From a plasmid, in the sequence record NZ_CP016506.1: DNA of 37,697 nucleotides; one strand, 5' to 3'. The translations under genes and the position numbers were made by a program. The notes under the pieces are model-generated. The model worked only from the letters and a program-made list of their open reading frames with translations. It made no database searches and was not told the origin of the DNA. Every line of letters starts with the position of its first letter. Within the stretch, counting starts at the first letter, position 1. Shown here piece by piece: positions 28,269 through 35,181 of this stretch.

Positions 28269-28913
28269 ATGACTTCAAATGTACCAACAAGCTTTGTCCG
28301 CGCTTATCTGAGAGCTTCAACAGCAGAACAGGATGCTTCGCGTGCCCTGGAAACTATCGAGGCTTTTGCCAGGGAAAGAGGCCTGATCATTTGCAGCTAC
28401 TATATTGAGAATGAATCCGGCACCCGTCTTGAGCGCCCGGAACTTTTTCGTCTTCTGAGAGATTGCCAACAAAATGACATTTTGCTTATCGAGGATGTGG
28501 ACAGACTTTCCCGCCTGTCAGGGGAAGACTGGAATACGTTGAAGAAAATGATCCGGCAGAAAGACATCCGGGTTATGGCGGTGAATGTGCCGACGACATG
28601 GATTAATTCTGGTATGAGTGAGTTTGACAGCCGGTTGTTTGCAGCCATTAACGATATGCTGCTGGATATGCTGGCCGCAGTTGCCAGAAGGGACTATGAA
28701 CAACGTCGGGAACGCCAGAAACAAGGGATAGAGAAAGCAAAGAAAGACGGCAAATATAAAGGGCGTAAACCTAATCAAGCCAGACATGATGCAATTATCA
28801 GGTTGATAGAAAGCGGTAGCTCCTGGACACAGGTACAGAAAGTGCTAGGGTGCAGCCGTGGCACAATCAGTAATGCGCTAAAACGTAAAACCGGGCAGAA
28901 ATCCAGTAAGTAG
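28269..28913 (+). CDS. serine recombinase (resolvase/invertase family), multimer resolution
   Basis: N-terminal catalytic motif YLRASTAEQ and a C-terminal HTH (GSSWTQVQKVLGCSRGTI). Confidence 0.85.
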   Translation: MTSNVPTSFVRAYLRASTAEQDASRALETIEAFARERGLIICSYYIENESGTRLERPELFRLLRDCQQNDILLIEDVDRLSRLSGEDWNTLKKMIRQKDIRVMAVNVPTTWINSGMSEFDSRLFAAINDMLLDMLAAVARRDYEQRRERQKQGIEKAKKDGKYKGRKPNQARHDAIIRLIESGSSWTQVQKVLGCSRGTISNALKRKTGQKSSK

Positions 28914-29023
28914 AGGAGTAGGGGGCTAATATACCTGCAAGGCAGGATATTAACTCAGGAGATTGGGGGTGTGGTGTTTAGTCAATGCATTTGAATATTG
29001 TAACTAAAATATGTTTTTATTAA

Positions 29024-29050
29024 AGGCCGGAGGTGGTTAGCCCCCGGCCT
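29024..29050. other. GC-rich stem-loop (aggccggaggtggttagcccccggcct) at 3' end of toxin gene; conserved in second toxin locus
   Basis: Inverted repeat with no U-tract. Followed in both loci by the conserved tagttacgtttccgc. Confidence 0.5.
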
Positions 29051-29067
29051 TAGTTACGTTTCCGCCA

Positions 29068-29151
29068 TCAGCCCATCAACTGGAGAAGGTAGCGAATCAG
29101 TTCAAGAAGTGAGATTAGTGCCCCCAGAACGATGATTGCTTTATCAATCAT
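29068..29151 (-). CDS. dinQ: DinQ-like type I toxin peptide (27 aa, MIDKAIIVLGALISLLELIRYLLQLMG), not in ORF track
   Basis: 22 of 27 residues match E. coli DinQ. GGAG RBS 7 nt upstream. A single TM helix. Confidence 0.7.
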   Translation of the reverse strand: MIDKAIIVLGALISLLELIRYLLQLMG

Positions 29152-29253
29152 CCGTTTACTCCATTATATGGAGCAGACTCCCGATACTTACTCTTACACT
29201 GCCTGTCATATCGGTTGTTCTTCGGTGTTGGTTGAAGACAGTTCCACTCCAGC

Positions 29254-29374
29254 CAGAGCCACCAACTCAGGGCTGGAAAACACAAAAAAGCCCGATTACC
29301 CGTCGGGTTTTTTTGTGCCTGTCGTTTGGCTGTACTTCCGTTTTTTCCCCTTCATTTGAGGGATTTTTCTTTCA
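29254..29374 (+). ncRNA. 120-bp repeat A: candidate agrB-like antitoxin sRNA gene (hairpin ccagcc..ggctgg then bidirectional terminator aaaaaagcccgattacccgtcgggttttttt)
   Basis: 96% identical to 34924-35043. Contains a tgcctgtcg stretch resembling tgcctgtca in the toxin leader. Confidence 0.4.
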
Positions 29375-29835
29375 TTTTTTGTTGCAGCCAATACCGCTGA
29401 TCGCGTTGGCCAACAGAACGATGCCGTTACCGGCATTATCATGAATCCCATTTTTTCAGTAAGTTGCAGCATACAAAGTAATTAAAAAAACGTCATTTTT
29501 TGTTGATGGATGCAGTAGCGGTGGTGTGCTACGTGAAATCTGGGAAATGCTGGCGGGTAAGTGACTCAATTTTTTAATCTCCGCACCTGTTTTTTTGGAC
29601 GTGCCAGCAATTATGACCTGAAGCAGAGGTGCGTCCGACAACAAAAATTCCGATCACCAGAAAAAATTTTGGACATTTTTTCCGATAATGCATTTTTGTC
29701 CAGGGGGATATGAACTACAGGGCAGGGCGAAAAGGAAGCGGTTATCTTGAATATCCATAGGATATGGGCTCATATGCCGGAATAGGGCACCAGATAAAGG
29801 AAATGAATTCAGTGTATGTTGTAACTAATAGGATC

Positions 29836-29859
29836 TGGACAGAATCACCTGAACGTCCA
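29836..29859. promoter_or_regulatory. operator-like palindrome TGGACA-N12-cGTCCA (copy 1)
   Basis: One of four near-identical sites, found only in the island. Confidence 0.45.
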
Positions 29860-30862: not shown

Positions 30863-30886
30863 TGGACAGAATTACCTGAGTGTCCA
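30863..30886. promoter_or_regulatory. operator-like palindrome TGGACA-N12-TGTCCA (copy 2)
   Basis: Upstream of the 116-aa gene. Confidence 0.45.
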
Positions 30887-31313: not shown

Positions 31314-31337
31314 TGGACAGAAAATGCTGTATGTCCA
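31314..31337. promoter_or_regulatory. operator-like palindrome TGGACA-N12-TGTCCA (copy 3)
   Basis: Upstream of the 169-aa gene and the OLD gene. Confidence 0.45.
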
Positions 31338-32008: not shown

Positions 32009-33910
32009 ATGGAAATAGTATCATTTAAAGTTTCTCAGTATAGGTCTATTTCAGGGGAGATATCCTCTGATAACTTTAATGGATTAACCATTGTTGGGCA
32101 AAACAACAGTGGTAAAACAAACCTATTAAAAGCTATGAGGGTTTTTTTTGAAGGAAAATTTAATCCTGACTTATATGACTATGAAAAAGATAAGCCACAT
32201 GGTGTTAAGCAAGGACAAACTAGTTTTGCTGTAAGATTTACTTTTTCTGAAAGTGAGCTAGATGATGTCTCTGAGGATTTGAGCCAAGACGATGATGATG
32301 ACGATGATGACTCGATTATTGAACTTGGTGTTTTAGGGGAGCAAGAAGAACCTAGTAATTCTATTTCATTTGATGATGGCAGCTCTAAACAACAAGAATC
32401 AAAACCAACTCAATCAAGAGGCAGAAAGCTAAGTTTGAGAGATAGATATTTGCAGCTGTTTAACATGATTGATGACTCCAGGTTAAATTCACCTCAAAAC
32501 GAAGTGACCGTACATCTGACAATATCTAATAAAAACAATTACTTTTACACTGTCTTTAAAGGTTACAAGAGGAAACCTGAAGTAACTTCCTCCATGTATA
32601 CATCTGTTGAAAGAAGGTTCATAGAAAAAATACTTTCTAGTTTTGAGTGTGTGTATATACCATCGTCAAAAAGTATTGATGATATATATCATAATCTATT
32701 AGTTCCATATGTTAGGAGTGAAGTAGCTTCAGCCATGAAAACATCGGTTCAAGTGATTCATGATAAACTGTTGGAAGTGTCTGAAAAGATAACAAATGAA
32801 ATGATTCTAAGCGGTATAGATGACTGTAGCTTTATGATTAAAGCTCCGCCATCTCTTGATGAGTTATTTGGTCGCTTTGAGGTTTCAATAAAAGATACTA
32901 TTGAGAATGTGATATCGAGTAAAGGTATGGGGCTACAATGCTTATCTTTATTTTCTTCATTTAAATCTATTTCAGAGAGAAAACTTACTCTAGGTAAGAA
33001 AACGATTTGGATGGTTGAGGAGCCTGAGTCTTTCTTGCATCCCTCATTAGGCCGGTCATGTAATCACATTTTCAAATCACTGATGGATGTTGCTTATGTT
33101 CTTATTACAACTCATTCCTTATCATTTGTCAGTGATGAGCCAAGTAAGATCATTGAGTTATATAAAGATGACGCCGGTGTTACAAAAGATAAAAAGCATG
33201 AAAAAAGATTTAATGCAGTTGCAAGCATAAGAGAAAATCTTGGGGTCAGATTTTCTGATTTCTTTAACATATCAAGTAGTGCAGTTTTCGTTGAAGGTAT
33301 CACCGACAAACAATATATAGAATCAATATTGAAATTGACATCTGAACATGATGAGTTTAAGAACAGATGGCCTTTTCTGAGGAGTGCTAAAGTTGATGAG
33401 TTTGGTGGAGTCAGTCAACTTGGGGGATTCTTGAAAGGGTGCTACGAGTTTATTTCTAAAGATGTCCCCGTAATATCTGTTTTTGACGGTGATGAAGCTG
33501 GGGTCAAAGAAAGAACCAGATTACAAAGCTACTTTGGTAAAAAACAAATTAGATTTGAGTCAAATAAAGACTATATTTCTGTAAGAAGTGGTTTTGCTAT
33601 TGAAGGCCTCTTCCCTGACGATTTCATTTCTGACGCAATGGAAACCCATCCGTCGTGGTTTATCGGAGGAAAATCTGTTGATGCCGATGATGTAATTGAA
33701 CCATTCAAAGTGCAAGATAATAAAAAAACTAACTTATTAAATTTCTTCCTGGAAAAATGTCGTGTTCAACCTATATGCGGTTGGATTTCTCGGTGGGAAA
33801 AGGTGTTTAACGTCATAGACTCAGCCTTGCGAGATAAAAGTGAATCCATCACAAACAAAAAACGAACCGAAGATACTTCCGGTAACACTTCAGCTCATCA
33901 AGCTGCATAA
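32009..33910 (+). CDS. OLD-family ATP-dependent nuclease (ABC-type ATPase + C-terminal Toprim)
   Basis: Walker A GQNNSGKTNLLKA. The OLD signature Walker B VEEPESFLHP. H-loop ITTHS. Toprim motifs VFVEGITD and FDGDEAG. AGGAAG RBS. Confidence 0.85.
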   Translation: MEIVSFKVSQYRSISGEISSDNFNGLTIVGQNNSGKTNLLKAMRVFFEGKFNPDLYDYEKDKPHGVKQGQTSFAVRFTFSESELDDVSEDLSQDDDDDDDDSIIELGVLGEQEEPSNSISFDDGSSKQQESKPTQSRGRKLSLRDRYLQLFNMIDDSRLNSPQNEVTVHLTISNKNNYFYTVFKGYKRKPEVTSSMYTSVERRFIEKILSSFECVYIPSSKSIDDIYHNLLVPYVRSEVASAMKTSVQVIHDKLLEVSEKITNEMILSGIDDCSFMIKAPPSLDELFGRFEVSIKDTIENVISSKGMGLQCLSLFSSFKSISERKLTLGKKTIWMVEEPESFLHPSLGRSCNHIFKSLMDVAYVLITTHSLSFVSDEPSKIIELYKDDAGVTKDKKHEKRFNAVASIRENLGVRFSDFFNISSSAVFVEGITDKQYIESILKLTSEHDEFKNRWPFLRSAKVDEFGGVSQLGGFLKGCYEFISKDVPVISVFDGDEAGVKERTRLQSYFGKKQIRFESNKDYISVRSGFAIEGLFPDDFISDAMETHPSWFIGGKSVDADDVIEPFKVQDNKKTNLLNFFLEKCRVQPICGWISRWEKVFNVIDSALRDKSESITNKKRTEDTSGNTSAHQAA

Positions 33911-34262: not shown

Positions 34263-34441
34263 AGTCGGGCGAGGAATTAAACGAGGGGCGTAAAAAAGGC
34301 CGCTTACGCGACCTCAGCCTTTTGCGGTTTTGGCTTGGTGATATACCACGATAGACAACCGACAAACATCGCAACAGGGAAAGGAAGAAGTAAACAGCGC
34401 CCCAAAATGCTCATAAAATCCATAAATCCTCCTTTGTTAAA

Positions 34442-34470
34442 GGGCAGGAAGCGGTTCACTTCCTGCCCTT
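34442..34470. other. GC-rich stem-loop (gggcaggaagcggttcacttcctgccc) at 3' end of second toxin gene
   Basis: Counterpart of 29024-29050, followed by the same tagttacgtttccgc. Confidence 0.5.
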
Positions 34471-34489
34471 AGTTACGTTTCCGCTGTCA

Positions 34490-34585
34490 TCAGTCGATGA
34501 ACTGGCGAATCAGTTCCAGAATTGCAATCAGCGCGTTTGCAACGGCGACCACAGCCCTGAGAACGATGATTAACAAATTAATCAT
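34490..34585 (-). CDS. DinQ-family-like type I toxin peptide 2 (31 aa, MINLLIIVLRAVVAVANALIAILELIRQFID), not in ORF track
   Basis: Same architecture as 29068-29151, with GGAG-aaacgg-ATG, a shared ELIR motif, and the same flanking sequences. Confidence 0.6.
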   Translation of the reverse strand: MINLLIIVLRAVVAVANALIAILELIRQFID

Positions 34586-34923
34586 CCGTTTCTCCAGTAA
34601 AACTGGAGGAAATCACCGTTGCTTACTCATACACTGCCTGTCACAACGGCTCTCTCGCATTGTTAGGTGTAGAGTGACCTCCTCCTGCCAGAGCACCGAA
34701 TACAGCACCACCTGTTTATCCAGCCAGGACTTTAAAATCGTTCATACCCGCAGATACGGGAAGGGCAGGATTGCAAGTCAACTACATGACTAACTGACTG
34801 ATTATACGCTACACAAAACACCCGTTACACCACTAAATGTGGTTCCTTAACCACATTTAGTTGCTTTACAGCACCATAGTGAATAAAATGTAAACGTTAG
34901 GTGTAGAGTAACCTTCTCCAGTC

Positions 34924-35043
34924 AGAGCCACCAACTCAGGGCTGGAAAACACAAAAAAGCCCGATTACCAGTCGGGTTTTTTTGTGCCTGTCGTTCGGCT
35001 GTACTTCCGTTTTTCCCCCTTCATTTGAGGGATTTTTCTTTCA
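34924..35043 (+). ncRNA. 120-bp repeat B: second copy of candidate agrB-like sRNA gene with bidirectional terminator
   Basis: 96% identical to 29254-29374. Confidence 0.4.
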
Positions 35044-35181
35044 GTTTTTTATCGGTGACTGTTTCATGGCTGGATTAATGTGGGGGTAAGGTATAGAGCA
35101 TTGCCTAACCTGCAAACTTTCAATACATTAGTAAGATTAGGATTTTTACTTACTCATCCAAACGAAAAAATGGAATGAAAA

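Follow-up and report, generated by a model that had tools for sequence, protein, structure and literature searches.

A dqlB/agrB type I toxin-antitoxin locus and a probable deletion derivative of dinQ/agrB on an IncX1 plasmid

Results

Layout of the dqlB/agrB cassette

The window, by which we mean the whole 37,697-nucleotide stretch of plasmid DNA analyzed here (NZ_CP016506.1), is an IncX1 conjugative plasmid, and its bases 14000-37697 align end to end with Salmonella Heidelberg pB182_37 at 98.8%. A preliminary description, made from the letters of the sequence, had proposed that a second, divergent toxin cassette (cassette 2) with its own small RNA (sRNA) repeat is related to a first one (cassette 1). 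We found this to be correct, since both peptides pass NCBIfam cut-offs and both repeats are AgrB. The annotation of pB182_37 places dinQ where cassette 1 is and dqlB where cassette 2 is. Cassette 2 contains the following features:

34440-34470, minus strand: terminator stem-loop of the dqlB mRNA, with a 12-bp stem, kept in all aligned dinQ/dql loci
34490-34585, minus strand: dqlB coding sequence, a 31-aa hydrophobic type I toxin, MINLLIIVLRAVVAVANALIAILELIRQFID (from the open reading frame, NCBIfam, and RefSeq)
34586-34795, minus strand: dqlB 5' untranslated region (UTR) of ~210 nt, from colinearity with K-12 dinQ
34592-34609, minus strand: hairpin CCUCCAG-UUUUA-CUGGAG sequestering the Shine-Dalgarno sequence (SD), the SD GGAG lying 6 nt upstream of AUG
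34662-34694, minus strand: AgrB target site in the dqlB 5' UTR, the left direct-repeat copy, at ATG+78 (from repeat comparison)
34801-34829, minus strand: putative dqlB promoter, with -10 TATAAT (reverse complement of 34801-34806) and a weak -35 at 34824-34829, from alignment to the K-12 dinQ -10
34833-34860, no strand: perfect 12-bp palindrome with a 4-nt loop, CTAAATGTGGTT at 34833-34844 and AACCACATTTAG at 34849-34860
34861-34889, plus strand: predicted agrB promoter read from the sequence, TTGCTT-17 nt-TAAAAT, with a start ~7 nt downstream
34897-34984, plus strand: AgrB sRNA (Rfam RF02891), comprising the seed (34897-34929), a stem-loop, and an intrinsic terminator
34985-35049, plus strand: conserved 65-nt tail that follows agrB and includes another terminator-like hairpin (35017-35031); it forms the end of the right-hand long repeat and an IncX1 mosaic breakpoint

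The cassette 2 peptide scored 72.4 bits against the NCBIfam DqlB equivalog NF041473 (cut-off, 35), matching over residues 1-31 of 31, and only 25 bits against the DinQ family NF041472, which is under the cut-off of 30. It is identical to an IncX3 DqlB at 29 of 31 residues. Among complete E. coli genomes, 130 records carry at least 80% of window positions 34300-35100; the top-listed of these are ~99.5% identical to the window and are annotated as "DinQ-like type I toxin DqlB" on RefSeq plasmids. The flanks described as common to the two cassettes are indeed shared, with a 3' stem-loop followed on the plus strand by the conserved sequence TAGTTACGTTTCCGC (at 34470 and 29051) and with the leader motif ACTGCCTGTCA at 34633 in cassette 2 and 29198 in cassette 1.

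A small membrane protein-like open reading frame (ORF; 34304-34459, minus strand) lies directly downstream of dqlB and corresponds to a 60-aa hypothetical protein in related plasmids. In both the window and pB182_37, it has a 60-bp in-frame deletion at 34357/34358 flanked by the 10-bp direct repeat CAACCGACAA, and the ORF accompanies dqlB in pOU1114, pYU39_IncX, and others.

Alignment with the mapped start of K-12 dinQ puts the probable dqlB transcription start near 34795; we deduced the K-12 start from the A108/C112/A115 numbering in PMC3567139 and the K-12 sequence. An alignment with K-12 and eight plasmid loci, together with the predicted fold, places the SD hairpin, the ACTGCCTGTCA region, and the 5' locking stem within this 5' UTR. 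In the predicted dqlB mRNA fold, the SD is unpaired with a probability of at most 0.17 and the first ~34 nt pair with the target region. The SD-sequestering hairpin is also present in K-12 dinQ, where it has been described (PMC5066626), and the predicted fold agrees with the published model of a locked +1 dinQ transcript and a processed active form (PMC5066626). The minimum free energy fold of a dqlB mRNA truncated by 44 nt keeps the SD closed and so did not reproduce the SD-open form.

Terminators were found for both dqlB and agrB, the intrinsic terminator of AgrB reading as a terminator on both strands. A simple promoter scan of cassette 2 missed both putative sigma-70 promoters, that of dqlB and that of agrB, so the placement of both rests on homology; the agrB promoter shares its geometry and aligned columns with the agrA and agrB promoters of K-12, for which primer extension has located the start sites (PMC3567139). 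A LexA box (CTG-N10-CAG) is absent from the cassette 2 promoter, and the sole match to this pattern, at 34712, falls within the leader; the K-12 box is at L002:1983. Since the promoter has no LexA-type box, dqlB expression is probably constitutive and not under SOS control. Cassette 2 is also not DinQ proper, given both its NF041472 score below the cut-off and its promoter without a LexA box.

The hairpin with a 12-bp stem noted in the preliminary description is perfect, with a DNA dG of -12.2 kcal/mol (z = -7.6 compared to shuffles), and lies exactly in the gap separating the -35 element of dqlB from the divergent one of agrB. It is found only in the IncX1/IncX4 dqlB lineage and is absent from IncX3, IncI1, IncX1 dinQ, and K-12. 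This palindrome might bind a regulator or act as an insulator.

AgrB seed and target

The cassette 2 sRNA matches RF02891 at 62.8 bits (gathering score, 40) over model positions 1-84 of 84, and its predicted fold is the Rfam consensus (z = -5.9). The cassette 1 sRNA also matches full length, at 69.6 bits. With two full-length AgrB matches above the gathering score and both peptides over their cut-offs, the similarity between the cassettes goes beyond chance matches. They share a long repeat, R1 at 29247-29380 and R2 at 34916-35049, of 134 nt at 96% identity.

A second pair of repeats lies within cassette 2. The direct repeats reported to flank the segment between toxin and sRNA are present (34662-34705 and 34896-34939) but are imperfect, at 80% identity over 44 nt, and their start-to-start spacing is 234, not 244. 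The left copy, at 34662-34694, occupies the position at which the dinQ 5' UTR of K-12 has its "agrAB repeat", the sequence targeted by AgrB (PMC3567139). In each of the nine toxin/agr pairs from the eight aligned intact loci, the target is found at ATG+74 to +79. Compared as plus-strand copies, the seed and target of cassette 2 are identical at 28 of 33 positions, and the cognate duplex is predicted at -57 kcal/mol; the five differences comprise two true mismatches, two G-U wobbles, and the final position, at which the repeats cease to be homologous. These differences count against the pairing model, given that an engineered mismatch of 4 nt abolished repression in pOXA-48 (PMC12365149).

Across loci, cognate duplexes ranged from -50 to -64 kcal/mol compared to -28 to -47 kcal/mol for most non-cognate pairs, while pairs sharing nearly the same seed/target sequence scored like cognates. 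Thus, the cassette 2 target gave -33 to -42 kcal/mol with non-cognate AgrBs except for those of L012 (-57.4) and L010 dqlB-2 (-55.5), which have nearly the same seed. The K-12 AgrA duplex was -47 kcal/mol, and K-12 AgrA does not protect (PMC3567139). The first 15 to 25 nt of seed and target vary between loci and agree within each locus, so that the two co-vary. On the basis of this co-variation, the conserved target position, and colinearity with K-12, the direct repeats correspond to the antitoxin seed and its mRNA target.

Together, these features make it very probable that this IncX1 conjugative plasmid carries, at window positions 34440-35049, an intact type I toxin-antitoxin (plasmid addiction) module of the dqlB/agrB family and that cassette 1 is a dinQ/agrB deletion derivative. 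In the mechanism that we propose for cassette 2, the minus strand would give a ~355-nt mRNA that has a ~210-nt 5' UTR and encodes the membrane toxin DqlB, and the plus strand would give the ~88-nt sRNA AgrB from a divergent promoter. The 33-nt 5' seed of AgrB would be a diverged direct copy of a dqlB leader segment, so that AgrB would pair in trans with the mRNA at ATG+78, blocking translation and triggering cleavage by analogy with dinQ/agrB and pOXA-48 dqlB/agrB. The primary transcript would be inert, with the SD in a local hairpin and the 5' end paired with the target region, and would become active after 5' processing. Upon plasmid loss, AgrB would be depleted and DqlB would kill the segregant.

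An alternative is that cassette 2 is intact in sequence and does not work as an addiction module, being silenced (for example, by a plasmid H-NS) or decaying, and hitch-hikes on the plasmid. The plasmid also carries a RelE/ParE type II toxin-antitoxin system and partition genes, which could suffice for maintenance, and related cassettes collapse yet persist in many plasmids (see below). Nevertheless, the ORF, SD hairpin, target, seed, both predicted promoters, and both terminators are intact, these elements are ~99.5% conserved in more than 100 plasmids (the percentage being that of the top-listed records), and function has been demonstrated for close homologues (29/31 aa), so we consider a non-working cassette 2 unlikely.

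The AgrB body and the 65-nt tail (34985-35049 and 29316-29380) are 93 to 96% identical between the dinQ and dqlB cassettes, while the toxin halves are ~77 to 78% identical, which suggests that the sRNA scaffold may have been exchanged or gene-converted independently of seed and toxin. We also observed a third cassette type, at L010:14068-14562 and L016:33892-34428, which encodes a 27-aa DqlB variant (MMNLLIIVLRAVLAIANALIAIQKLIE) and follows directly on the first dqlB-agrB, ahead of an NTase/SLATT/HEPN block. For the AgrB seed of L010 dqlB-2, the predicted duplex with the window-type dqlB leader (-55.5 kcal/mol) is stronger than the one with its own leader (-50.2 kcal/mol), so cross-talk between cassettes is possible.

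Origin of the two cassette layouts

The long repeat starts 331 nt from the toxin ATG in cassette 2 and 96 nt from it in cassette 1, as the preliminary description had noticed in outline. The corresponding features of cassette 1, which spans about 29030-29380, are:

29068-29151, minus strand: plasmid dinQ, 27 aa, MIDKAIIVLGALISLLELIRYLLQLMG (ORF; NF041472 DinQ, 55.5 bits)
29227-29315, plus strand: hybrid in which the dinQ target repeat is fused to the AgrB body, from alignment with intact relatives

MAFFT alignments show that cassette 2 is colinear with K-12 dinQ-agrA across the whole of the supposed insert and with eight other loci, including IncX3, IncX4, and IncI1 dqlB. The distance from ATG to agr in intact loci (K-12 dinQ; IncX4, IncX3, and IncI1 dqlB; two more pYU39_IncX cassettes) is 262 to 324 nt. 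In the K-12 alignment, the target is followed in order by ~100 nt of remaining leader, the dqlB -10, the agr promoter, and the agr gene. By this homology, the segment between the repeats can be assigned as the rest of the dqlB leader plus two back-to-back promoters.

Intact IncX1 dinQ cassettes in pHNAH968-4 and p94EC-4 are 96 to 98% identical to cassette 1 and contain 187 bp more, located precisely between the target and the AgrB seed. This 187-bp segment is homologous to the leader/promoter region of cassette 2 and K-12 and holds both promoters. The deletion junction of cassette 1 lies within CTCCAGCCAGAGC (29247-29259), and we found no promoter-like site on either strand of 28950-29500; the AgrB terminator of cassette 1 reads as a terminator on both strands. 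The comparison indicates that cassette 1 lost 187 bp, both promoters included, by recombination of its target with its seed. Because both promoters are deleted, cassette 1 is probably silent, a DinQ-type peptide gene left without any promoter.

These results bear on the structural reading in the preliminary description, in which a duplication or mobile insert of ~234 to 244 bp separates toxin from sRNA in cassette 2 and the compact cassette 1 is ancestral. A segment bounded by imperfect direct repeats of 33 to 44 nt with a strong palindrome inside does look like an insert, and compact layouts occur elsewhere too (L011, L015, and L017). However, homology of the segment with the K-12 dinQ leader/promoter region and with every intact dql locus holds position by position, both genes have their -10 and -35 elements within it, near-identical versions of cassette 1 retain it, the compact loci are without promoter-like sites, and the repeats co-vary as seed and target. 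We therefore regard an insertion in cassette 2 as very unlikely; the alignments invert the earlier interpretation, with the supposed 244-bp insert matching the canonical leader/promoter region and the compact cassette 1 appearing as the deletion derivative that lost 187 bp. A reading of the left copy (34662-34705) as the 5' end of a degenerate agrA-like second sRNA gene, prompted by the K-12 agrA/agrB tandem whose genes are 231 bp apart, near the 234-bp spacing here, can be practically dismissed, since there is no AgrB-like match at 34662 even at an E value of 10, the sequence past 34694 aligns with the dinQ leader and not with an agr stem-loop or terminator, no plus-strand promoter lies upstream of 34662 because the copy is in the dqlB leader at the conserved ATG+78, and plasmid dqlB has agrB but no agrA beside it (PMC12317039).

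Thus, under the deletion reading, the window would carry one intact type I toxin-antitoxin system and one promoterless relic instead of two live cassettes, and RefSeq labels the relic "dinQ" without a hint of collapse. The collapsed form is widespread, as a 51-nt junction probe (at most 1 mismatch) matched 169 PLSDB plasmids, and all six of the loci inspected in full were collapsed (6/6); the inter-repeat segment is present in 90 PLSDB plasmids. A link between collapsed dinQ and the presence of the dqlB/OLD module was considered and found to be unsupported, as L007 to L009 are collapsed without an annotated dqlB.

Collapsed dqlB cassettes on other plasmids

Collapsed dqlB cassettes, in which the target is fused to the AgrB body, were found on the E. 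coli MS 69-1 IncX1 plasmid (L015:31904-31990), an IncX5/IncU Klebsiella plasmid (L011:953-1038), and IncK2 pDV45 (L017:572-660). The distance from ATG to agr in these three is 77 to 79 nt, and RefSeq still annotates their toxin genes as dinQ or dqlB. Since the toxin and AgrB sequences differ between the cassettes, the collapses are independent events, having arisen in at least three dqlB lineages or, with the IncX1 dinQ, in four dinQ/dqlB lineages. Junction probes of the L015 and L017 types discriminate poorly because their unique flanks are short, so the counts that can be claimed are three full-length records for the L015 type and at least eight for the L017 type.

We found no mention of a decay route by recombination between seed and target in the literature searched. 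As a tentative generalization, which may well not hold, the seed/target repeat of trans-acting type I systems could make them prone to a precise deletion in which both divergent promoters are lost in one step, a non-lethal exit from addiction repeated on enterobacterial plasmids; the AgrB body and tail may also serve as portable homology bordering exchangeable cargo or defense modules in IncX plasmids. Were such deletion a general phenomenon, it would account for how a plasmid can drop a type I addiction module and leave its host alive, and surveys of dinQ/dqlB gene presence would overcount functional systems. We view this recurrent repeat-mediated collapse as a modest new side observation that merits a systematic survey.

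Plasmid context

Alignments among relatives show that IncX1 plasmids are mosaic downstream of the resolvase gene. In many of them, similarity to the window extends as far as 35050, where R2 ends, and in others it stops at 28889, at 34294-34366, or directly past R1. Because similarity ends at or near both cassettes, these sit at breakpoints, which partly supports the module boundary suggested in the preliminary description. Its suggestion of recombination between the repeats fared less well, since we found no R1 x R2 recombination product among the compared plasmids and the breakpoints of pOU1114, which has neither dinQ nor the OLD-family ATPase, fall outside the repeats. The order in pOU1114 is res, a 60-aa ORF, dqlB-agrB, a second dqlB-agrB, and NTase/SLATT/HEPN; three cassettes follow one another in pYU39_IncX, and one E. 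coli plasmid with a near-identical dqlB has the same sequence 3' of both agrB copies (89% over 274 nt).

The block between the two cassettes of the window encodes an OLD/AriA/GajA-like ATPase:

32009-33910, plus strand: AAA_15 ATPase, 633 aa, with best PADLOC matches to Old, AriA, and GajA

This ATPase, which is probably a defense gene, contains an acidic low-complexity insert (DDDDDDDD), and the small ORFs ahead of its gene had no family matches. In the block before the ATPase gene, a 24-nt palindromic motif, TGGAC-N14-GTCCA (TGGACAGAA...GTCCA), occurs in three copies upstream of small ORFs (29836-29859, 30863-30886, and 31314-31337), which could be operator or terminator sites.

Discussion

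The value of this analysis is corrective, and cassette 2 itself adds nothing new. It belongs to a system that is already known, as the dql family was defined in 2016 (PMC5066626), was validated in 2025, and is annotated in RefSeq; the mechanism of dinQ/agrAB has also been described (PMC3567139). The DqlB of pOXA-48 is toxic, AgrB rescues from it, and the pair is an addiction module; a 4-nt engineered seed mismatch abolishes AgrB rescue, compensatory 5' UTR changes were tested, and dqlB occurs on 53% of IncX plasmids (PMC12365149). The IncX3 dqlB-agrB of pOXA-484 has been validated and stabilizes a test plasmid (PMC12317039).

The dqlB/agrB loci of pOXA-48 (IncL) and pOXA-484 (IncX3) resemble cassette 2 in their 31-aa DqlB, in a divergent trans-acting AgrB with a ~33- to 35-nt seed complementary to the dqlB 5' UTR, and in layout and spacing, with 308 to 312 nt from ATG to agrB. 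In contrast, the seed/target sequence of cassette 2 differs from theirs, so its specificity is probably different, and it has the extra 12-bp palindrome between the promoters that is common to IncX4 only. K-12 dinQ-agrA/agrB is colinear with cassette 2 over the terminator, coding sequence, SD hairpin, ACTGCCTGTCA, target, leader, divergent promoters, and agr gene, and K-12 AgrB likewise matches RF02891. Cassette 2 differs from K-12 in its toxin, a 31-aa peptide of the DqlB subtype into which 8 aa are inserted compared to DinQ, in having one agr gene compared to two, and in lacking the CTG-N10-CAG LexA box of the K-12 dinQ promoter.

Type I systems of E. coli with a similar divergent, trans-pairing design are tisB/istR-1, zorO/orzO, and shoB/ohsC, which are chromosomal and are not addiction modules. 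Like cassette 2, these systems combine a small hydrophobic toxin and a long structured 5' UTR with a neighboring divergent sRNA that pairs through a short repeat (PMC3567139 and established knowledge).
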